Shown here in pieces: positions 47,879 through 58,815 of a DNA stretch of 64,000 nucleotides. The stretch comes from Hyphomonadaceae bacterium. Lineage in GTDB: Bacteria > Pseudomonadota > Alphaproteobacteria > Caulobacterales > Aquidulcibacteraceae. Every line of letters begins with the position of its first letter. Position 1 is the stretch's first letter. The notes beneath the pieces are model-generated. The model was not told where the DNA came from. It saw only the letters and a program-made list of their open reading frames with translations, and searched no databases. The position numbers were made by a program, and so were the translations under genes. The stretch is taken from positions 56,614 to 120,613 of the forward strand of contig JBFWOC010000002.1 in NCBI GenBank assembly GCA_050250735.1, read 5' to 3'.

Positions 47879-47892
47879 ATGCAATATTGCAT
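47879..47892. promoter_or_regulatory. perfect 14-bp palindrome ATGCAATATTGCAT, LysR-box-like
   Basis: It lies in the 110-bp divergent region between the MscS-like gene and the LysR-type regulator gene. Confidence 0.45.
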
Positions 47893-47935
47893 CGGCCAGA
47901 GACGCCAAATGGGCGCCTCCGGCGCGGGCGCGACG

Positions 47936-48826
47936 ATGGACTGGGACAAGCTCAAGACCTTTCACTTCGCCGCCGAGACCGGAAGCCTGACGGCCGCGGC
48001 CGAAAAGCTCGGCGTCAGCCAGTCCTCGGTCAGCCGCCAGATTGCTGCGCTTGAAAGCGACATGGGCGTGCCGCTGTTCCAGCGGCATGCACGCGGGCTG
48101 CTGCTGACCGGCCCAGGCATGGCGCTGCGCGAGTTCACCCGCGAAATGGCAGGCGCAGCGGTGATTGCGGAATCGACGCTGAAGGACGCGCGCGAGAAGG
48201 TGATCGGCGACTTGAAGGTGACGGCGCCGGTGGCGTTCGGTTCGACCTGGCTTGCGCCGCGGCTTGGCGCGTTCGCAGATCAATATCCCGAAACGCGGCT
48301 GCAGATACTGCTGGACGACCGCGAATACGATCTGCTGAAGCTCGAGGCCGAATGCGCTATCCGGCTCTGGGCCGCAACGCACGCCGATCTGATCCAGCGC
48401 AAACTGCTGGAGGTGCATGTCAGCCTCTATGCATCGGCCGCTTATCTGCAGCGCCACGGCACGCCCAAGAAAGTCGAAGACCTCGATGAGCACCGGATCA
48501 TCGCCTATCAGGCGGGCGTGCCTACGCCGATGCGCGAGATGGACTGGGCCCAGCGCGCCGGGCGCGAGGATGCAAAGCCCCGCCCGCCGCTGCTCGAGAT
48601 CAACAACGTCTACGGCATGCTGCGTGCGGTCGAGTCCGGCTTCGGCATCGCCAGCGTGCCCGATTACATGGCGCGCGAGAATCCGAACCTGGTGAAGGTG
48701 CTGCCTGAACTGAAAGGCCCGAGCTTCGAAGTGTATTTCATCTATCCCAGCGATCTGAAACGCTCGAAGCGCATTGCCGCCTTCCGCCAATTCCTGATCG
48801 ACCAGGCGTCGGATTGGGAGCCTTGA
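47936..48826 (+). CDS. LysR family transcriptional regulator
   Basis: Track ORF 47879..48826; ATG at 47936. MDWDKLKTFHFAAETGSLTAAAEKLGVSQSSVSRQIAALE is a LysR HTH. Confidence 0.9.
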   Translation: MDWDKLKTFHFAAETGSLTAAAEKLGVSQSSVSRQIAALESDMGVPLFQRHARGLLLTGPGMALREFTREMAGAAVIAESTLKDAREKVIGDLKVTAPVAFGSTWLAPRLGAFADQYPETRLQILLDDREYDLLKLEAECAIRLWAATHADLIQRKLLEVHVSLYASAAYLQRHGTPKKVEDLDEHRIIAYQAGVPTPMREMDWAQRAGREDAKPRPPLLEINNVYGMLRAVESGFGIASVPDYMARENPNLVKVLPELKGPSFEVYFIYPSDLKRSKRIAAFRQFLIDQASDWEP

Positions 48827-48827
48827 G

Positions 48828-49264
48828 CAGGTGTCAGGACTCAGGTGTCAGGTGTCATGAGCGAGCTCCGCGGCGCGCCTTCGGTTTGGGACATGATTGT
48901 GTTCCAAAAGGCGTATGCGACAGCTCTCGAAACACACCGTATCGCTCTGACGTTTCCGAAGCATGAGCAATATGAACTCGCCAGCCAGCTTCGGAGGTCC
49001 AGCAAATCCATTTGCGCAAATCTCGCCGAAGGCCGCGCAAGACAACAAGGCTCAAACGCCGAGTTTCGACGCTTCGTTTTGATTGCGCTCGGGAGCGCCG
49101 ACGAGTCGGCGCTTTGGTGCAAGTTCGCGCGAGACCTGGGTTATCTTACTGAGGACCAACACGCGCAACTTACAGGGCAATTTAGCGAAATCGCCAAGAT
49201 GCTGAACAGCCTAGTCTCGAAGCTGAACGCATCCTGACACCTGACACCTGATACCCGACACCTG
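48828..49264 (+). mobile_element. heptamer-array-bounded cassette carrying one four-helix-bundle ORF
   Basis: Left array 48828-48855: CAGGTGT CAGGACT CAGGTGT CAGGTGT. Right array 49237-49264: ACACCTG ACACCTG ATACCCG ACACCTG. The right array is the reverse complement of the left at 25/28 positions. A hand count of the first 120 nt of the ORF gives 64 G+C (53%), lower than the surroundings. Confidence 0.6.
48857..49237 (+). CDS. four-helix-bundle protein (TIGR02436 / 23S rRNA intervening-sequence protein family, Avd-like)
   Basis: 126 aa from the ATG at 48857 (track ORF 48845..49237). FPKHEQYELASQLRRSSKSICANLAEGRAR..EFRRFVLIALGSADES..W is the hallmark pattern of this family. Confidence 0.8.
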   Translation: MSELRGAPSVWDMIVFQKAYATALETHRIALTFPKHEQYELASQLRRSSKSICANLAEGRARQQGSNAEFRRFVLIALGSADESALWCKFARDLGYLTEDQHAQLTGQFSEIAKMLNSLVSKLNAS

Positions 49265-50164
49265 TTAGAGCTGCCCCGCCGGCACGTTGAACGTATCGCA
49301 CTGGCGGGCGTCGCCGGAATTGAAGCCGCGCCTGAACCAAGTCACGCGTTGGGCGCTGGTGCCATGGGTGAATTGGGCCTCGTTGCTTTGGCCGAGCGTG
49401 TCATCGCCGATCGCATGCGCAGCGTTGAGCGCCTCACGCAGATCGGCGTCGTCGATCGCCAACGTCGACCGCGCGGTGTGACCCCATACGCCGGCGAGGC
49501 AATCGGCCTGCAGCTCGACGCGCACCGAGGTCTGGTTGCGGGACTCGCCCTGAACCTGAATTTGCGTCGCCCCGATCAGGTTCTGCACGTGGTGGCCGAC
49601 TTCGTGCGCGATGACATAAGCCTGAGCGAAATCACCCGGCGCGCGCAGGCGGCTCTCCATCACCTGGTAGAAACTCGGATCAACGTAGAGCTTGCGATCG
49701 CCCGGGCAGTAGAACGGGCCGACTTCCGCCGAGGCGCTGCCGCAGCCCTCGGTCGCCACGCCGCCGGAGTACACAACGAGCGTCGGATTCTGATACGCGC
49801 CCGTTTGTTGGCCGTAGTTCGGCAGCCGTCCTTGCGAGAATTGCGTTGCCCACACGTCTTCCGTGGAGCCGAGCACGGCGCGAGAGAAATCGCATGCCTG
49901 CGCGTTGCTTTCGCACACGCTGCCTTCGCCTTGCGACTGCGCCTGACCCGGCACGCCGCCCAGCAATGCGCCGAAGACCATGTCCTTGATGCCAGGCGGT
50001 GCGAAGAAATAGATGCCCGCAAGCACGACGACGACGATCAGAATGCCGCGCAACCCGATGCGCCGGAGAATGGCGAACAATGCGCCGGCAGGCAGTCCGC
50101 CGCCGCCGCCGCCACGGCCGCGATCTTCGAAATTGTCGGAACGTCGCTGGCCTTCGGTACGCAT
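49265..50164 (-). CDS. neutral zinc metallopeptidase, YpfJ-like
   Basis: 299 aa. RRSDNFEDRRG is followed by a Gly run and a TM helix. FAQAYVIAHEVGHHVQN contains the HExxH motif. Confidence 0.85.
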   Translation of the reverse strand: MRTEGQRRSDNFEDRGRGGGGGGLPAGALFAILRRIGLRGILIVVVVLAGIYFFAPPGIKDMVFGALLGGVPGQAQSQGEGSVCESNAQACDFSRAVLGSTEDVWATQFSQGRLPNYGQQTGAYQNPTLVVYSGGVATEGCGSASAEVGPFYCPGDRKLYVDPSFYQVMESRLRAPGDFAQAYVIAHEVGHHVQNLIGATQIQVQGESRNQTSVRVELQADCLAGVWGHTARSTLAIDDADLREALNAAHAIGDDTLGQSNEAQFTHGTSAQRVTWFRRGFNSGDARQCDTFNVPAGQL

Positions 50165-50187
50165 GGCGTCTCCCCTTTTCGGCGAGA

Positions 50188-51429
50188 TTAGCCCGCCGCT
50201 TCCCGGCGGGGCAACGCGGAACTGCCTGCCGCCGCTCGCAACACCATAGAAAGCGCGACCAGCGCCAGCACGGCGGCCAAAATAAAGGCCGCGCCAGGGA
50301 AATGCACCGGCGCGCCATCGGCGGAGAAACGCCCAAGCGTCTGGGTCATCAGCAGCGGCCCCAATATGGTGGTGAGGCTCATCATGCTGGCGACACCGCC
50401 CTGCAACTCGCCTTGAGCGTCGGGCGGGACTTGTTTCGACATGATCGCGTTCATGGCCGGGTAGGCCAGCCCCTGCAGCGCGCCCAGCGTCATCGCCGCA
50501 TAGACCATCCAGCTCTGCGTCGCGACCGAAAGGGCGAGCATGCTCAAGGTCCCTGAGAGCATGCCGAGGATCACGGCGCGATGCTCGCCGATGCGCGGCA
50601 CGATCCTGCCGGTGAGATAGCCTTGCGTGAACGCCATCAACACGCCGGTGAAGGCAAGCGAGCCGCCGATCGCCGCCTCGCTCCAGTCAAAGCGAAGCTT
50701 GGCGAAAAACGCCCACGTCGATGGGTACACTTGGTGCGCCAGCTGCCACAAAAACACGGCGCCGGCGATGGCGATGACAGCGGGATAGCGGCGAAGCGCA
50801 AGCAGCGTGCCCAGGGGATTGGCGCGCGCCCATTCGAAGTCGCGCCGGCGCTGCGACGGCAAGCTCTCGGGAAGGAAGAAGTAGCCGTAAACGAAGTTGA
50901 GCGCGCCAAGCGCTGCAGCGGCGAAGAACGGCGCGCGGGGCCCGAGTTCGCCCAGCAAACCGCCAATGGCTGGGCCGAGAATGAACCCGACGCCGAACGC
51001 GGCGCCGACAAGTCCGAAGCTCTGGGCTCGCTTCTCCGGCGCCGAGACGTCGGCAATGTAGGCCATGGCCGGCGAATAGACCGCGCCGGCGACGCCAGCC
51101 ACCGCACGGCCAAGGAAGAGCCAGCCCAAGGTCGGCGCAAAGCCCATCAGCGCATAATCGAAGGCGAACGCGGCGAGCGACATGAGCAAGACGGGCCGGC
51201 GGCCGTAGCGATCGCTCAAATTGCCGAGGATCGGCCCGCAGACGAATTGCAGCGCCGCGTAAGTGATGAGCAGCCATCCCGCGAGCAGCGTTGCTTGCGC
51301 CATCGGCGCTCCGGTCAGCGTCACGATCAGTTGCGGCATCACCGGCAAGATGATGCCGAAGCCGATCGTGTCGATCAGCACGGTCAGGAAGATGAACGCC
51401 AGCGCGTGTTTGCTTGGTGGGCGTGACAT
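50188..51429 (-). CDS. MFS transporter, TCR/TetA-like
   Basis: 413 aa and about 12 TM helices. [23 protein letters not shown] and [14 protein letters not shown] are typical TetA-class MFS motifs. Confidence 0.85.
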
Positions 51430-51455
51430 TCCTGGTTTCCCCCAGTGCGAGCTTC

Positions 51456-52541
51456 TTACGTCTGCCGATCGCCGTCGTCGAACAGATCGGCTTGTCCATC
51501 CAGGTCAAGTGGCCGCCGAAATTGAGTGTGGTCGAGCGGCGGCGGCGGCCTGTCGAGGCCGAACCGCTTGCGCGCGGCGGCAAAGCGGGCGGCTATCAAC
51601 TTGGCGTACGGCCCCTCGCCTTTCTGCCGCTTGCTCCACTCGGGATCGTAATCGCGGCCGCCGCGCATCTGGCGCACCAGGCTGATTACCCGCGTCGAGC
51701 GGTCCGGGAAATGCTTGTGCAGCCATTCGCGGAATAGATCTTTGATCTCAAGCGGCAGCCTCAGCACGACGTAACCGCACGCGGACGCGCCTGCCTGGGC
51801 GCATTGCTCCAGGATCGCTTCGATCTCGCTGTCGTTGATCGCCGGCACCACCGGAGCGACCATGACGGTGACGGGCACGCCCGCCTCCGCGAGCATGCGG
51901 ATCGCTTCGATACGCCGATGCGGGGCCGCCGCTCGAGGCTCCATCACCCGGGCGATGCGGCGCTCCAGTGTGGTCACCGAGATAGCGGCCTTGGCGAGCC
52001 CACGCTCCGCCAGCCGTGCAAGGACATCGATGTCGCGGATCACGAGTTGCGACTTGGTGATGAGCGACACCGGATGGCGCCAACGTTCCATCACTTCGAG
52101 AATGCCGCGGGTGACGCCATAGCCGCGCTCGATCGGTTGATAGATGTCGGTCACGCCGCCGAGCATGATGGTCTTCGGCCTGTAGTTGGGCCTCGCGAAC
52201 TCGCGTTCGAGCAATTCGACTGCGTTCGCCTTCACGAACAGCTTGGTTTCGAAATCGAGTCCCGGCGAGAGACCGACATAGGCGTGGTTCGGCCGCGCGT
52301 AGCAATAGATGCAGCCGTGTTCGCAGCCGCGATAGGGATTGATCGACTGCTCGAACGAAATGTCGGGGCTCTGATTGGTGGAAATGATGGTCTTGGCCAA
52401 TTCAGGCGTGACGATCGTCTCCAGCGGCCGGGCGCCGTCTTCGCCCACCCAACCGTCATCGAAGGCTTCGCGAACGAAGCGTTCGTAGCGCCCGCTGGCG
52501 TTGGTGCGCGCGCCCCTGCCATGCAGCGGATCGGATGTCAT
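51456..52541 (-). CDS. PA0069-family radical SAM protein (COG1533, SplB-like)
   Basis: 361 aa. GRGARTNASGRYE and YRGCEHGCIYCYARP contain the CxxxCxxC cluster. Confidence 0.85.
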   Translation of the reverse strand: MTSDPLHGRGARTNASGRYERFVREAFDDGWVGEDGARPLETIVTPELAKTIISTNQSPDISFEQSINPYRGCEHGCIYCYARPNHAYVGLSPGLDFETKLFVKANAVELLEREFARPNYRPKTIMLGGVTDIYQPIERGYGVTRGILEVMERWRHPVSLITKSQLVIRDIDVLARLAERGLAKAAISVTTLERRIARVMEPRAAAPHRRIEAIRMLAEAGVPVTVMVAPVVPAINDSEIEAILEQCAQAGASACGYVVLRLPLEIKDLFREWLHKHFPDRSTRVISLVRQMRGGRDYDPEWSKRQKGEGPYAKLIAARFAAARKRFGLDRPPPPLDHTQFRRPLDLDGQADLFDDGDRQT

Positions 52542-52565
52542 TCACTGGGATTATTATCCTAATAA

Positions 52566-52580
52566 GAACAAATCAAGAAC
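52566..52580 (-). promoter_or_regulatory. alphaproteobacterial SOS (LexA) box, GAAC-N7-GAAC
   Basis: GAACAAATCAAGAAC lies 24 nt upstream of the radical SAM ATG. On the minus strand it overlaps a plausible promoter: TTGTTC, an 18-nt spacer, then GATAAT (52553-52582). Confidence 0.55.
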
Positions 52581-52584
52581 AATT

Positions 52585-52770
52585 TCAGGAATGCCGGGCT
52601 GGCTGGTCGTTTCCGTGGGGCTCGCTGCGGATTGTTTCGTCGATGCGGCGGAGCTGATTTTCGAATGGTTTTTTCTCGCCAATCGACCCGTTGCTGGCGT
52701 AGGCGCGCTGCAGCGTCGCGCGCAGTGACGCGAGTTTTTGCGCCTTGGTCGGTTGGACGAAGCCTTCCAT
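52585..52770 (-). CDS. small hypothetical protein (61 aa)
   Basis: The track ORF has mostly GC-ending codons. There is no clear SD, and its 3' end abuts the SOS-box promoter region. Confidence 0.35.
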   Translation of the reverse strand: MEGFVQPTKAQKLASLRATLQRAYASNGSIGEKKPFENQLRRIDETIRSEPHGNDQPARHS

Positions 52771-52825
52771 GCCTTGGCAAGACCGGTACCGCCGCTGAGG
52801 TTCCGCCGGGCGGTTTTAAAAACCT

Positions 52826-52851
52826 TAGGGCGCCGGTCTCCCGGCGCCCTA
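52826..52851. terminator. bidirectional rho-independent terminator-like hairpin
   Basis: tagggcgccgg tctc ccggcgcccta (11-bp stem). It is flanked by TTTT on the plus strand (52853-52856) and TTTTT on the minus strand (complement of 52818-52822). Confidence 0.6.
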
Positions 52852-52930
52852 GTTTTGTGGGCTTAACATGGATGTCTGCCTGTTTCTTGCGCCCCTCAGG
52901 GGGCCTGGGAAGGTTCAGGTCAGCGACCCG

Positions 52931-53023
52931 TCAGGCAACCATCTGCGCGGCTTGGTTCAACGTCAGAAACGCAACCGGGGCGAGCACCGCGAGCGCCGCA
53001 ACAAGGCAATAAAACTTGGTCAT
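52931..53023 (-). CDS. candidate small hydrophobic peptide (30 aa), not in ORF track
   Basis: Hand translation: MTKFYCLVAALAVLAPVAFLTLNQAAQMVA, or 34 aa from the ATG at 53035. The leader GAGGAGAGATGGAGCAGGAA is purine-rich. The hairpin terminator lies about 80 nt downstream. Confidence 0.35.
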   Translation of the reverse strand: MTKFYCLVAALAVLAPVAFLTLNQAAQMVA

Positions 53024-53135
53024 TTCCTGCTCCATCTCTCCTCGAACCGTCCATCGATCCGATGAGTTGAAGCTAATGAGCGTTTAGCCTTCTGGATGTG
53101 ACACGGGGCACAGGATCGTAGCGGCCCCGCTTCAT

Positions 53136-53885
53136 TCACATAAAGCCCATGTCGCGGTCGTAACTGCGGAAACGGCGGCCGGCGTCGACGTAAACGGTCT
53201 GGCCGGTGACCGCGTCGTTCTCGATCAAGAAGCGGACGGCGTGGGCGATGTGCTCGGGCGTGGGTCCGGTTTCGAGCGGGGTGTCGGCGTGCAGGCGCCG
53301 CCAATCCGCTTCCGCTTGCCCCGGCGCTGGCAACACATAGCCGGGCGCTACGGCATTCACGCGCACGCGCGGCGCCAGCGCGCGCGCAAGCAGCTCGGTC
53401 GCGCCGGCGAGCGCGTATTTAGAAAGTGTGTAGGAGAAGTGATCGGGATACGGGTTGGCGAGCTTGAAATCGAGGAAGTTCACGATTGCGCCGCGGCCGT
53501 GCTCCGGCAGCGACTCGGCAAACTCTCGCGACAGCATCGCCGGCGTAAACGCGTTGATGGCGATATGCTTTTGCAGCAATTCTTCGCTCATCGTGTCGAT
53601 GGTGTCGTGCTCGAATATAGCGGCGCAATTGACCAGCGCCGTCAGCGGCGCACCGGCGGCATTTGCAGCGCCGGAGATGAGGCCGTGACGCTCGGCCGCG
53701 TTGCCGAGATCGGCGCCTATCGCAACCGCAGCGGCGCCGGCTTCGCGCACGGTCGAGGCCACAGCCTCGGCCTCTGCGCGTGAGTGGCGATAATGAATGG
53801 CGACATTCCAGCCGTGATGCGCAAGCTCGATCGCAACGGCGCGCCCTAGCCGCTGACCGGCGCCGGTGACCAGCGCCCAGTTCAT
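53136..53885 (-). CDS. short-chain dehydrogenase/reductase (pteridine reductase/FolM-like)
   Basis: Track ORF 53136..53993; the ATG at 53885 gives MNWALVTGAGQRLGRAVA (TGxxxxxG). YTLSKYAL is the YxxxK motif. There is a 4-nt ATGA overlap with the upstream folB-like gene. Confidence 0.8.
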   Translation of the reverse strand: MNWALVTGAGQRLGRAVAIELAHHGWNVAIHYRHSRAEAEAVASTVREAGAAAVAIGADLGNAAERHGLISGAANAAGAPLTALVNCAAIFEHDTIDTMSEELLQKHIAINAFTPAMLSREFAESLPEHGRGAIVNFLDFKLANPYPDHFSYTLSKYALAGATELLARALAPRVRVNAVAPGYVLPAPGQAEADWRRLHADTPLETGPTPEHIAHAVRFLIENDAVTGQTVYVDAGRRFRSYDRDMGFM

Positions 53886-54247
53886 TGGCGTTCCCTGCGG
53901 ATCGTCACCGCAACCAGCCCATCGCCGGAAAGCACAGAAGGCTTCTTCACTGTCACTTCCACCCAGAGCGCACGACTGGAGAGCGACAAGCAATGGCCGG
54001 CGACGCGGTCCGAGAGCGTCTCGATGAGATGCGCCGGTTCGCCGAGATCATCGCGAATGAAATGAATGATGCGGTCGTAATCGACGGTTTCGCCGATCCG
54101 GTCATGGGCCGGATAGAGCGGAGGATCGGCCAGGGCAAGCGTCACCGAGATGCGCACCTCCTGCGGCGTTGCGCGCTCGGGATCGGGCACCCCTACCCGC
54201 ACCAGCGCCTTGGCGTCGTCGATACGGAGAATGTGGAGATCGGCCAT
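53882..54247 (-). CDS. folB: dihydroneopterin aldolase family protein
   Basis: 121 aa. VRVGVPDPERATPQEVRISVTL and ETVDYDRIIHFIRD fit FolB-type tunnel-fold proteins. It is paired with an SDR, as in other folB-folM-like pairs. Confidence 0.7.
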   Translation of the reverse strand: MADLHILRIDDAKALVRVGVPDPERATPQEVRISVTLALADPPLYPAHDRIGETVDYDRIIHFIRDDLGEPAHLIETLSDRVAGHCLSLSSRALWVEVTVKKPSVLSGDGLVAVTIRRERQ

Positions 54248-54379
54248 CAGGTACCAGGTGTCAGGTGTCAGATATCAGTTATCAATTGGGAGATGAACAT
54301 GGCCGGGCCGTTATCCAGGCTGATGCAAACTATTCTGACAACTGACACCCGACACCCGACACCTAACACCTGACACCTG
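54248..54379. mobile_element. second heptamer-array element with no clear ORF between the arrays (empty or decayed copy)
   Basis: Left array 54248-54289: CAGGTAC CAGGTGT CAGGTGT CAGATAT CAGTTAT CAATTGG. A 48-bp centre follows. Right array 54338-54379: ACAACTG ACACCCG ACACCCG ACACCTA ACACCTG ACACCTG. It fills the whole gap between the folB ATG and the EamA stop. Confidence 0.6.
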
Positions 54380-55213
54380 TCAGGCGAAGGCGATGAGGCC
54401 AGCGCCCGCGGCGACGATCGCGGCGCCGAGCCAGCGGCGAAGCCCCAGCCCCTCGCGCAGGAACAGGAAGGCGATCAGCGCACCCCAAACCACGGAAGTT
54501 TCGCGCAACGCCGTCACTTGCGCGATCGGGGCGAAGGTCTGCGCCCAAAGCACCAGCCCGTAGCCGGCGAAACTGATAACGCCGATAGCAATGCCGCGCC
54601 AGGGCGCAATCGCCGCGGCGGTCAGCAATCGCGCCGCCCCTCGCCGCCAGAACGCAAAGACGGCCATGGGCACGGACATGAGTGTCATCGACCAGCCGAG
54701 GAAGATCACCGCATTGCCGGCCGCGCGCGCACCCAGCGCGTCGACCAGCGAGTAGGAGGCGATGCAAAGACCGATGGCACCTGCCCAGAGCGTCGCCTTC
54801 AGCGGCGCACGCGGGCTGGCCCCGACGGTGAACACGCCGAGCGAAACCAGCGCAATGCCGGCCAGTTTCAACGGCGGCGGAATCTCATGCGCCGTGAGCG
54901 CCGCGCCAAAAGCCACCAGCATCGGCGCCATGCCGCGCGAGAGCGTATAGACATGGCTCATGTCGCCGGCGTCATAGCCTTTGAACAGACAGAACCAATA
55001 GGTGAGGTGGATGCAGATGGTCAGCCCGAGATAAGGCCACGCGGCCTGCGGCAGCGCGCCAAGCGAGAGGATGATCAGAAACCCCGCACCGAGACCGCCG
55101 ACCGCGATGAGGAAGGAATCCGTCACGCGGTCCGTGCCGCCCTTGAGCGCGGCGTTCCAACTGGCGTGGATCAAGGCCGAGGCAAGGGCGGCGGCGATGG
55201 CGAGCGGCGGCAT
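54380..55213 (-). CDS. EamA/DMT family transporter
   Basis: Only the 3' 277 codons of track ORF 54380..56218 are used (ATG at 55213). About 10 TM helices with a duplicated EamA-like pattern. The upstream part of the track ORF is antisense to the next gene. Confidence 0.8.
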   Translation of the reverse strand: MPPLAIAAALASALIHASWNAALKGGTDRVTDSFLIAVGGLGAGFLIILSLGALPQAAWPYLGLTICIHLTYWFCLFKGYDAGDMSHVYTLSRGMAPMLVAFGAALTAHEIPPPLKLAGIALVSLGVFTVGASPRAPLKATLWAGAIGLCIASYSLVDALGARAAGNAVIFLGWSMTLMSVPMAVFAFWRRGAARLLTAAAIAPWRGIAIGVISFAGYGLVLWAQTFAPIAQVTALRETSVVWGALIAFLFLREGLGLRRWLGAAIVAAGAGLIAFA

Positions 55214-58470: not shown

Positions 58471-58815
58471 ATGCCGCTCTTGATGTGCCCGAACTGCAAC
58501 GCTTCGATGACCGAGGTGAAACGCAACGACGTCGCCTTCGACATGTGTCCGACCTGCCGGGGCGTATGGCTGGACCGCGGCGAGCTGGAGAAGATCATTA
58601 CCGGCGTGCAGGCCGACCGGGGCGGCGGCTTAGATCAGGGCCAAGCCCAGTTTTCGCAAGGCCAACGTCCGCCGCAGCAACCGCAGCAGGGCTACGGCGA
58701 ACGCGGCGAATATGGCGAGCGTGGCGAATACGGCGAGCGCGGCGAAGGCAGTCACGATCAGCGCGGCCGCCGCCGGCGTGGCGGCTTCGATCTTATGGAT
58801 ATTTTCGGCGACTAG
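58471..58815 (+). CDS. TFIIB-type zinc-ribbon protein with low-complexity Gly/Glu/Arg tail
   Basis: Track ORF 58426..58815; ATG at 58471 has GGAGGA upstream. CPNCNASM..CPTCRGVWLDRGELEKI is a zf-TFIIB pattern. Confidence 0.7.
   Translation: MPLLMCPNCNASMTEVKRNDVAFDMCPTCRGVWLDRGELEKIITGVQADRGGGLDQGQAQFSQGQRPPQQPQQGYGERGEYGERGEYGERGEGSHDQRGRRRRGGFDLMDIFGD
58696..58749 (+). repeat. 3 x 18-bp in-frame tandem repeat (GERGEY x3)
   Basis: ggcgaacgcggcgaatat / ggcgagcgtggcgaatac / ggcgagcgcggcgaaggc. Confidence 0.8.

Follow-up and report, generated by a model that had tools for sequence, protein, structure and literature searches.

What kind of element can fill the space between two converging genes almost to the last base? 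The question is raised by a stretch of 64,000 nt from a Hyphomonadaceae bacterium (contig JBFWOC010000002.1; the whole stretch is called the window below, and positions are counted within it), in which a single open reading frame (ORF), enclosed by inverted arrays of the heptamer CAGGTGT, lies between a lysR-type gene and a convergent ypfJ-like gene. We find that this cassette belongs to the type seen in the ORF-bearing intervening sequences (IVS) of 23S rRNA, here as a copy outside rRNA. Its interest comes from the pattern of the whole family rather than from the single copy in the window.

Structure of the window cassette

The cassette fits its gap exactly (Table 1). The lysR-type stop codon (TGA, 48824–48826) is followed by a single G (48827) and then by the left arm, one base (C, 48856) separates this arm from the ATG of the ORF (48857), the last base of the TGA stop codon (49235–49237) is at the same time the first base of the right arm, and this arm stands directly against the TTA (49265–49267) that forms the ypfJ-like stop codon. 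A preliminary description, made from the sequence letters, had given the coordinates of the arms, the ORF and the flanking stops together with an arm complementarity of 25/28, and every position proved correct; its statement that the cassette fills the gap between the two stop codons was confirmed base by base. All three mismatches between the arms fall in the second heptamer unit. In an inverted-repeat search the pairing reached 33 nt at 88% (48828–48860 with 49232–49264), and the start and stop codons therefore lie inside the stem. Tandem Repeats Finder (TRF) assigned a period of 7 to both arrays, with 4.3 and 4.6 copies. Such head-to-tail 7-nt copies in a spacer are characteristic of tandem heptamer intergenic repeats, which are simple-sequence repeats (SSRs) resembling the short tandemly repeated repetitive (STRR) sequences. 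The 14-mer CAGGTGTCAGGTGT, allowing at most two mismatches, matches the window 14 times against 0.13 expected, a number reached in 0 of 100 shuffles, and all 14 matches lie within this cassette or within a second element at 54248–54379.

Assignment of the ORF to TIGR02436/PF05635, as first proposed, was borne out by the profile search: PF05635 was matched over profile positions 2–106 of 106 (E = 5e-32, 110.6 bits, cut-off 33.8) and TIGR02436 with 111.7 bits (cut-off 24). Solved structures similar to the protein by sequence are 2GSC (E = 6e-11) and 2RLD (E = 7e-8), each deposited with five chains. The same profile search identified the upstream neighbor as a LysR regulator (PF00126 and PF03466) and the downstream neighbor as a Zn-peptidase (PF04228). 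The ORF has a GC content of 55.4%, compared with 63.9 and 65.2% in the neighbors, and 63% GC at third codon positions, compared with 78–80%; the ORF value is slightly higher than the figure of about 53% given earlier. In every relative examined the ORF likewise lies about 6–9 points under its surroundings (55–59% vs. 62–67% GC), without drift of its composition toward the host, although the cassette has been at the site since before the genera split.

In the predicted RNA fold of positions 48820–49272 the arm stem closes the ORF, with a minimum free energy of −194.4 kcal/mol compared with −152.6 ± 6.1 for shuffled sequences (z = −6.8). The cassette has, as IVS do, terminal inverted repeats that form a long enclosing stem. 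A scan of positions 48300–49800 returned no promoter-like or terminator-like site. No Rfam family was found at either heptamer element, and the region 48500–54700 gave only sub-threshold chance matches elsewhere.

Relation to the intervening sequences of 23S rRNA

IVS are inserted into 23S rRNA at helix 25 or helix 45. ORF-bearing examples with terminal inverted repeats have been known since the 1990s, and PF05635 genes outside rRNA are annotated by the thousand. To place the window cassette among these, we used a survey of the protein family made with a degenerate-peptide scan at one genome per species, which returned 80 loci (L numbers below) with 78 usable ORFs. The scan peptide was built from an 11-sequence alignment, a 39-sequence alignment being too diverse.

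Six of the nine closest outside relatives in this survey (L016, L017, L019, L021, L034, and L058; 48–53% identity) lie within large-subunit rRNA genes as identified with Rfam; with Azospirillum lipoferum 4B AZO_p2 (L347) there are seven rRNA-embedded relatives, from Alphaproteobacteria, all with a sense-oriented ORF whose product is 47–53% identical. They are flanked by ...ACCGAAGCUGCGG and GGUAGCGGAGCGUUC..., which, going by the E. coli 23S sequence, presumably border helix 45. Their stems are inverted heptamers with a CAG core (for example GTCAGAA GACAGGG ATCAGGA). These loci support the earlier suggestion that the cassette has the topology of an IVS outside rRNA.

The ORF-bearing IVS of Leptospira, Coxiella burnetii, Brucella and Haemophilus (helix 45) encode the same family, PF05635 or "S23p," and share with the window cassette the terminal inverted repeats, a stem of about 28 bp around the ORF, and tandem heptamers, variable in number, by the start codon. 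In Coxiella the terminal stem measures 28 bp, two to three GACAGAT heptamers and one degenerate unit stand upstream of the S23p ORF, the number of heptamers differs between strains, and RNase III cuts at the first repeat (PMC4990558). The two differ in setting, as the window cassette lies between the lysR and Zn-peptidase genes, with no rRNA match in 48500–54700, and excision from between two protein-coding genes is not needed for ribosome function. The window ORF is under strong purifying selection, whereas that of the Coxiella IVS reportedly decays and is not translated. Cleavage by RNase III, demonstrated for the Coxiella IVS, is predicted by analogy for the window cassette.

Heptamer termini had been thought undescribed. 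The Coxiella heptamers and 28-bp stem had in fact already been noted (PMC4990558); a general description was not found. Apart from that remark, we found no literature linking PF05635 genes with inverted heptamer arrays in a search that left subscription journals and database family comments mostly outside, so that an earlier description is possible.

Table 1. Heptamer elements of the window and the genes that flank the cassette.
Feature	Position	Strand	Description
5' arm	48828–48855	+	CAGGTGT CAGGACT CAGGTGT CAGGTGT, a tandem array of four heptamers; G-rich arm type with YAG
ORF	48857–49237	+	PF05635/TIGR02436 "four helix bundle protein" (23S rRNA intervening-sequence protein), 126 aa; strong purifying selection
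3' arm	49237–49264	+	ACACCTG ACACCTG ATACCCG ACACCTG; reverse complement of the 5' arm at 25/28
Whole cassette	48828–49264	+	437 nt; occupies the gap between the convergent lysR and ypfJ-like stop codons
LysR-family regulator gene	47879–48826	+	Flank; apart from read-through out of this gene, no source of sense transcription for the ORF is evident
Zn-peptidase gene (PF04228, ypfJ-like)	49265–50164	-	Flank, convergent
ORF-less member of the CAGGTGT repeat family	54248–54379		About five CAGGTGT-type units (54248–54282) and about six ACACCTG-type units (54335–54379), loop of about 50 nt

Architecture of PF05635 loci across phyla

The survey covers Proteobacteria, Firmicutes, Chloroflexi, Acidobacteria, Planctomycetes, Bacteroidetes, Verrucomicrobia, Nitrospirae, several groups of the candidate phyla radiation and one archaeon. 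At most loci, tandem heptamers stand just 5' of the start codon and their complement just 3' of the stop codon. The heptamers themselves vary by locus (for example TAGTCAG, GGGGATA, AGCTGGA, AGTGGTT, AGAAGTC, and GGAAGGT). Self-match of the 90-nt flanks of the 78 ORFs is raised solely at lags of 7 and 14 nt, to 0.40 and 0.39, compared with 0.26 in control segments taken 400–1000 nt away, which are mostly coding. With the 95th percentile of these controls as threshold, a period-7 array is present on at least one side in 58/78 loci and on both sides in 44/78. The two flanks are mutually complementary in 61/78 loci (above the 95th percentile of mismatched locus pairs), while their direct similarity is at background. 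Arms that are matched although their sequences differ between loci amount to whole-arm covariation, and are therefore strong evidence for selected pairing.

Survey arms have a median length of 29.5 nt and reach at least 20 nt in 57/62. Arm and start codon are separated by a median of 23 nt, stop codon and arm by a median of 8.5 nt, and at 11 loci the arm overlaps the stop. In 59/71 loci the upstream neighbor points the same way as the ORF; the median gap is 67 nt. The arms also have a direction: the 5' arm contains more G than C in 51 loci vs. 8 and is purine-rich in 49 vs. 11, so that on either strand the G-rich, YAG-containing arm is the 5' arm. CAG or TAG occurs in 34/46 5' units, against 13.5 expected and a maximum of 24 in 2000 shuffles, and the position before YAG is T-rich, giving a unit of T-Y-A-G and three variable bases. 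Stop codons within units, considered as a reason for the repeats, are not significantly more frequent than expected in the 5' units (28 vs. 23) and show a modest excess in the 3' units (24 vs. 13). A named example is Nostoc punctiforme pNPUN01 (NPUN_RS33770), with eight AGTCAGG units upstream and CTCCTGA-type units downstream (AGTCAGG/CCTGACT-type).

Similar heptamers tend to go with more similar proteins (50% vs. 42% identity, in pairwise comparisons that are not independent). Arms of AGTGGTT occur in genomes of Ruminococcus, Thiohalocapsa and Ignavibacteria, and one genome can hold cassettes with different heptamers, the arms being matched within each (L001 and L054). Cassettes of this family thus occur widely among the bacterial phyla; the heptamer is particular to each lineage, but the T-Y-A-G core and the polarity are shared.

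Several loci depart from this layout. In Candidatus Chloroploca sp. Khr17 (Chloroflexi; L092, 1380–1920) a heptamer close to that of the window appears in the rare opposite polarity, the ORF having CTGACAC units upstream and CAGGTxT units downstream; only 8/62 loci have, like this one, a C-rich 5' arm. At L031, L054 (131–484), and L065 the arrays on the two sides of the ORF are copies in the same direction instead of inverted ones (direct score 20–35), and L054 and L051 have two family ORFs within 1.5 kb; the direct arrays and paired ORFs suggest tandem cassettes that share arrays. On plasmid alpha of Nostoc sp. PCC 7120 (L348; NC_003276.1, 3776–4126) the annotated four-helix-bundle gene has a long 3' array of CCTTCTG/CCCTCTG and no 5' array; given a transposase gene some 550 nt upstream, rearrangement may have removed the 5' arm.

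Age and turnover of the cassette in relatives

Among the 120 best matches listed, near relatives of the ORF protein (66–99% identity) come from Terricaulis, Vitreimonas and uncultured Hyphomonadaceae. The ORF also lies between the ypfJ-like and lysR genes in the complete genome of Terricaulis silvestris (CP047045; L001, 3001–3381), in a metagenome-assembled genome (MAG) of Vitreimonas and in MAGs of Hyphomonadaceae. The orthologous arms are CAGGTGT/ACACCTG arrays of 3–7 units that end 0–4 nt from both stop codons; across all CAGGTGT-armed relative loci compared, unit number varies from 3 to 9. Relatives with the same ORF at the same site thus have the repeats as well, contrary to a possibility raised in the preliminary description.

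The window orientation is common to its three closest relatives (99, 87, and 85% identity). At the 12 more distant loci, those of T. silvestris and of the Vitreimonas and Hyphomonadaceae MAGs, the ORF is reversed with respect to the flanking genes and co-directional with the ypfJ-like gene: when they are aligned to the window, flanks and interior match it in opposite orientations. As judged from these alignments, the two clades are separated by one inversion, which turned the interior around between the arms. An independent insertion at lysR|ypfJ would also be conceivable, but it is the less parsimonious account, since the site is empty in no sampled relative. The window copy has been at the site since before Terricaulis, Vitreimonas and their relatives diverged, and is therefore an old, stable copy without recent mobility. 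Between orthologs, nonsynonymous differences are few (pN 0.07–0.13) and synonymous ones saturated (pS 0.68–0.82), with dN/dS, where estimable, of about 0.04–0.07, which means that the protein encoded by the ORF is functional. The CAGGTGT consensus of the non-coding arms is kept across the orthologous loci despite the saturated synonymous sites, and the arm sequence is therefore constrained or continually homogenized.

Occupied and empty states do differ between relatives at two other sites. One is the junction of a radical-SAM and a major facilitator superfamily (MFS) gene, which is occupied in T. silvestris (L001, 370–784; CP047045) and a 26-nt spacer in the window (51430–51455). The T. silvestris ORF at this site encodes a second four-helix-bundle member of 117 aa, 34% identical to the window protein. 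Its array, CGATTGC in four copies, stands on the 3' side only, without a recognizable complementary 5' array. The other site, EamA|folB, is described below. In addition, a JGI contig contains a 70%-identical ORF with 5 and 9 CAGGTGT units at an unrelated site, within a string of co-directional genes. Positional polymorphism, whose absence would have counted against the earlier proposal of a mobile or RNA-processed module, exists at the two other sites; the window copy itself is not recently mobile. Empty sites occur at radical-SAM|MFS and EamA|folB but at lysR|ypfJ in none of the sampled relatives, and no target duplication was found.

Gene content beyond the cassette varies in this region. 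The MFS gene between the Zn-peptidase and radical-SAM genes (50188–51429) is present in the window, in L216 and in T. silvestris, and absent from the Hyphomonadaceae and Vitreimonas loci L002–L007 and L011–L015. A transposase of the IS1595 family lies just past the radical-SAM gene in L002–L005 and L007.

Hairpins without an ORF

About 5 kb from the cassette, the window contains the second heptamer element, with 5.6 and 6.4 copies of period 7 in TRF and with no ORF. It takes up the entire space between the folB ATG (minus strand, 54247) and the EamA stop codon (54380–54382). In three sets of relatives this junction is only 13–15 nt long (TGA-gtaaggtccggggcc-GTG, TGA-ctaggtttcatcc-ATG, and TGA-gtaagttcgcgcc-ATG), and in the window 132 nt of hairpin stand in place of the native spacer. 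As its loop is foreign, the element came as a unit and did not grow by local slippage. Comparison of filled and empty sites showed no visible target duplication. The loop (54283–54338), sought in the ORF as a deletion derivative, gave only 11-nt matches at chance level, and a blastn-short search against the metagenome loci gave no match. In one Hyphomonadaceae lineage (L218–L221, 1399–1500) the EamA gene is gone and its last approximately 40 nt and stop codon (…GGCCTCATCGCTTTCGCCTGA) persist in a 102-nt spacer upstream of folB, at the site of the window hairpin.

A metagenome scan for exact CAGGTGTCAGGTGT gave at least 120 loci, on contigs of 39–69% GC. Among those listed, 111 are real arrays of at least three units, 45 of them inverted pairs with a short interior and 62 single recognizable arrays; only 3–4 enclose or adjoin a four-helix-bundle ORF, which makes ORF-less hairpins about 12 times as frequent as ORF-bearing ones. 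Adjacent arrays in this list are ordered CAGGTGT...ACACCTG in 54 cases and oppositely in 1, with a median interior of 44 nt, and the modal array has 4 units (28 nt) and the modal pair 4 + 4. Around 53 hairpins we found neither target-site duplications nor conserved flanking words. The relation is asymmetric: nearly every gene of the family has arrays, and most arrays are without a gene. The first characterization of the cassette, "arms plus ORF and almost nothing else," is accurate for the window copy, which in this respect is of a minority form. Nor are the arrays unique to this locus, a point on which the first interpretation had depended: they recur in the second window element, in a cassette at another site and in the metagenome, and arrays surround homologous ORFs elsewhere in the survey.

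In viral contigs half of the 120 matches to the CAGGTGT 14-mer are chance and only five pairs are in the order of the cassette arms, and there is therefore no phage enrichment. The phage GenBank collection contained no match to the window protein. Two IMG/VR contigs hold a family member with heptamer arms AGAGTGG/CACTCTC. Two metagenome loci of 47–48% GC (L100, 5288–5462, and L204, 8384–8557) carry ORF-less CAGGTGT hairpins with mutually homologous loops of about 120 nt, which contain an extra short CAGGTTT/CAGGACT array. The top-scoring tandem repeat of the window (TRF score 87) is unrelated to these elements: an 18-nt repeat, TACGGCGAGCGCGGCGAA, in 3.0 copies at 58693–58746.

Comparison with other repeat systems

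Intergenic arrays of period 7 with 2 to more than 10 units have been described as cyanobacterial STRR, as GGGAATC in Xanthomonas, as GGGGA(C/T)T in Nostoc and as TAACTGA in Beggiatoaceae, and in Xanthomonas there are 70–75 convergent (inverted) pairs per genome (PMC4692102). The Beggiatoaceae TAACTGA is the complement of TCAGTTA, which fits the T-Y-A-G core. These published repeats of Xanthomonas, Nostoc and Beggiatoaceae look like the same phenomenon as the ORF-less hairpins. In the papers the arrays figure as SSRs, as formers of G-quadruplexes or as signals in translation, and those on Xanthomonas, cyanobacteria and Beggiatoaceae make no mention of PF05635 genes or rRNA IVS. The arrays described here differ from the published ones in forming matched inverted pairs of fixed polarity, a subset of which encloses a specific gene family. 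No literature linking the cassettes, the ORF-less hairpins and the work on heptamer SSRs was found, subscription journals lying mostly outside the search.

Repetitive extragenic palindromic (REP) sequences, their composite forms (bacterial interspersed mosaic elements and the REP doublets called REPINs) and the REP-associated tyrosine transposases (RAYTs) offer a parallel: both systems consist of short palindromic intergenic repeats in many copies per genome that form hairpins in mRNA and outnumber a single associated protein gene, itself flanked by repeats. Heptamer arms, however, are tandem 7-nt arrays and REPs a unique palindrome with a GTAG/CGTC head, and the associated protein is a small helical bundle where a RAYT is an HUH/Y1 transposase; mobilization of the heptamer repeats by the PF05635 protein is a hypothesis. 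Since the enclosed gene matches only PF05635 and bAvd and the repeats are tandem heptamer arrays, we do not class the elements as REP/REPIN-RAYT. MITEs (miniature inverted-repeat transposable elements) and insertion sequences resemble the cassettes in their terminal inverted repeats, in having coding ("autonomous-like") and short non-coding versions and in presence/absence polymorphism between relatives. The heptamer cassettes differ from them in lacking a transposase and target-site duplications, in arms that are internally repetitive and in replacing the native spacer instead of interrupting it. Membership in this class was likewise rejected, there being no direct duplication at either element, a replaced spacer of 13–15 nt, and an ORF that is no transposase.

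Proposed mechanism and alternative explanations

We judge it probable, by a narrow balance, that the window element is an IVS-type cassette outside rRNA that is transcribed by read-through, pairs its arms in the transcript, is excised by RNase III and spreads by some process at the DNA level. The cassette appears to be promoterless, because only 1 nt separates its arm from the ATG, no promoter-like site was found and upstream neighbors in the survey are mostly co-directional (59/71). Transcription would then come from the upstream host gene, that is, from lysR in the window and from ypfJ in the flipped clade; as the arms are an inverted repeat, either orientation gives the ORF the same 5' arm. 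Once transcribed, the arms would form a duplex stem of about 28–33 bp that brings the ends of the insert together and buries the AUG and UGA. The juxtaposed ends would matter in rRNA and possibly also at the junction of the EamA stop and the folB start, and the stem would keep the insert structurally self-contained in any host RNA, be it rRNA helix 45, an operon spacer or the end of a convergent gene. The arm stem is long enough for RNase III and, by analogy with Coxiella, probably a substrate of it, and cleavage as in the Coxiella IVS would free the cassette RNA and limit translation of the ORF. The tandem build may allow the arms to pair in several registers, in which case the stem would survive slippage that gains or loses a unit. 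Spread and loss would take place at the DNA level and leave no target duplication.

Several observations weigh against this account. Mismatches compatible with G.U pairing are about as frequent in the sense as in the antisense transcript (71 vs. 60, p = 0.38) and give no strand signal; the test is uninformative for ORF-less hairpins, each of which is its own reverse complement, and it leaves room for arm pairing that acts in DNA rather than RNA. A simple requirement for a stem does not explain the 7-base unit, the conserved YAG core or the fixed polarity, and these features, with the conservation of the arms, hint at sequence-specific recognition by a protein. A buried AUG and removal of the 5' arm by RNase III are hard to square with the making of a strongly conserved protein. 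Furthermore, 17/78 family members have no recognizable arms, and the periodicity controls were segments of mostly coding sequence and not other intergenic spacers.

In view of these points two further readings retain real weight. The hairpins could be mobile units in an autonomous/non-autonomous system acting on DNA, much like REPINs or MITEs, with the PF05635 protein binding the arrays in trans and promoting their spread or maintenance as RAYTs do for REPs, and with the RNA stem as a by-product. Such a system would account for the fixed polarity and conserved core, for arm sequence being kept over saturated neutral divergence, for the numbers (45 ORF-less inverted pairs against 3–4 ORF-bearing cases among the 111 listed arrays) and for the two kinds standing 5 kb apart in the window. 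It also agrees with presence/absence at two sites, one of them an inserted hairpin with a foreign loop, with the range of 39–69% GC among the contigs listed, which implies that the CAGGTGT heptamer occurs in many taxa, and with similar heptamers accompanying similar proteins (AGTGGTT in Ruminococcus, Thiohalocapsa and Ignavibacteria). We nevertheless think it unlikely: the PF05635 protein is a small bundle of helices for which no nuclease or recombinase motif is known, its characterized relative Avd is an accessory protein that binds nucleic acid and reverse transcriptase, neither target-site duplications nor conserved flanks were found, and the window copy is fixed at one site across genera. 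Alternatively, the protein may regulate itself. TRAP binds (G/U)AG repeats, and a pentameric ring of the PF05635 protein might similarly bind the YAG-N4 repeats of the single-stranded 5'-arm RNA, with each heptamer taken by one subunit; in competition with the formation of the stem, this binding would govern translation or the access of RNase III. XCC0516 (2GSC) is described as a homopentameric toroid (PMC4990558), and the five chains of both deposited structures, the modal array of 4–5 units, the strict period with its core of 3–4 conserved nucleotides and variable spacer positions, the 5' arm ending 1–23 nt from the start codon and the correlation of protein with heptamer similarity would all suit this arrangement. 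It is a purely inferential proposal, however, Avd being the only family member with binding data; it is not obvious why the numerous ORF-less hairpins, or arrays with as many as 17 units, would require it, and the variable heptamer positions would demand co-varying specificity residues. We therefore regard autoregulation as a distinctly doubtful explanation.

Two other explanations deny any link between arms and gene. That the arms are ordinary products of slippage which flank the ORF by chance, functionally unconnected to it, draws on the over-representation of heptamer SSRs between genes in several bacteria (PMC4692102, PMC4679880) and on unit numbers of 3 to 9 across orthologous loci. Slippage yields no reverse-complement array across a gene, though, and neither matched arms in 61/78 unrelated loci with differing heptamers, nor a polarity of 54:1, nor the foreign loop of the EamA|folB hairpin would be expected from it, which makes this a very improbable origin. 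It is barely credible, too, that the ORF is an orphaned Avd accessory gene of a diversity-generating retroelement (DGR) and the repeats are unrelated remnants. The window protein and Avd do share a homologous fold and family clan (pentameric four-helix bundle), and the profiles of bAvd (PF22296) and of the Avd equivalog NF033474 are matched weakly, with 25.4 and 30.6 bits, but these scores are far under the curated cut-offs of 40 and 80, respectively. The genes within about 2.5 kb encode a mechanosensitive channel, LysR, the Zn-peptidase, an MFS protein and a radical-SAM protein, with no reverse transcriptase among them and no template or variable repeat at the locus; gene content is unchanged in all relatives examined, and the phage collection held no protein match. 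On the sub-cut-off scores of the profile hidden Markov models and the missing reverse transcriptase we do not count the ORF as a DGR Avd, and with arm complementarity in 61/78 loci and the polarity of 54:1 both the DGR remnant and the unrelated SSRs are effectively excluded.

A broader and still tentative possibility, in our view rather improbable in its full form, is that PF05635 proteins and tandem-heptamer hairpins constitute one hitherto unrecognized, pan-bacterial system. The pentamer would bind YAG-N4 arrays with one subunit per repeat; ORF-bearing cassettes, including the 23S rRNA IVS, would be its "autonomous" form, and ORF-less hairpins (the convergent pairs of Xanthomonas, STRR-type arrays and the element at 54248–54379) its dependent form, with the protein governing processing, stability or spread.

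Significance

As far as we found, three literatures have stood unconnected: that on ORF-bearing 23S rRNA IVS, that on the over-represented intergenic heptamer repeats of Xanthomonas, cyanobacteria and Beggiatoaceae, and that on the very large orphan family of "four helix bundle proteins" related to Avd. The observations reported here indicate that they concern facets of one element type, built of inverted arrays of about four heptamers with a T-Y-A-G core and fixed polarity, and occurring with or without an ORF in forms whose ends fit exactly between codons. In practice this matters for annotation: gene boundaries are marked by the arrays, assemblies break at them, and they could be used to locate elements. 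The nature and origin of rRNA IVS, the reason why bacteria accumulate heptamer repeats and the role of PF05635 proteins now become testable, and Terricaulis silvestris, a cultured host with a complete genome, carries the orthologous cassette. Should the single-system reading be true, it would give a function to a large orphan protein family, to rRNA IVS and to bacterial heptamer repeats together.

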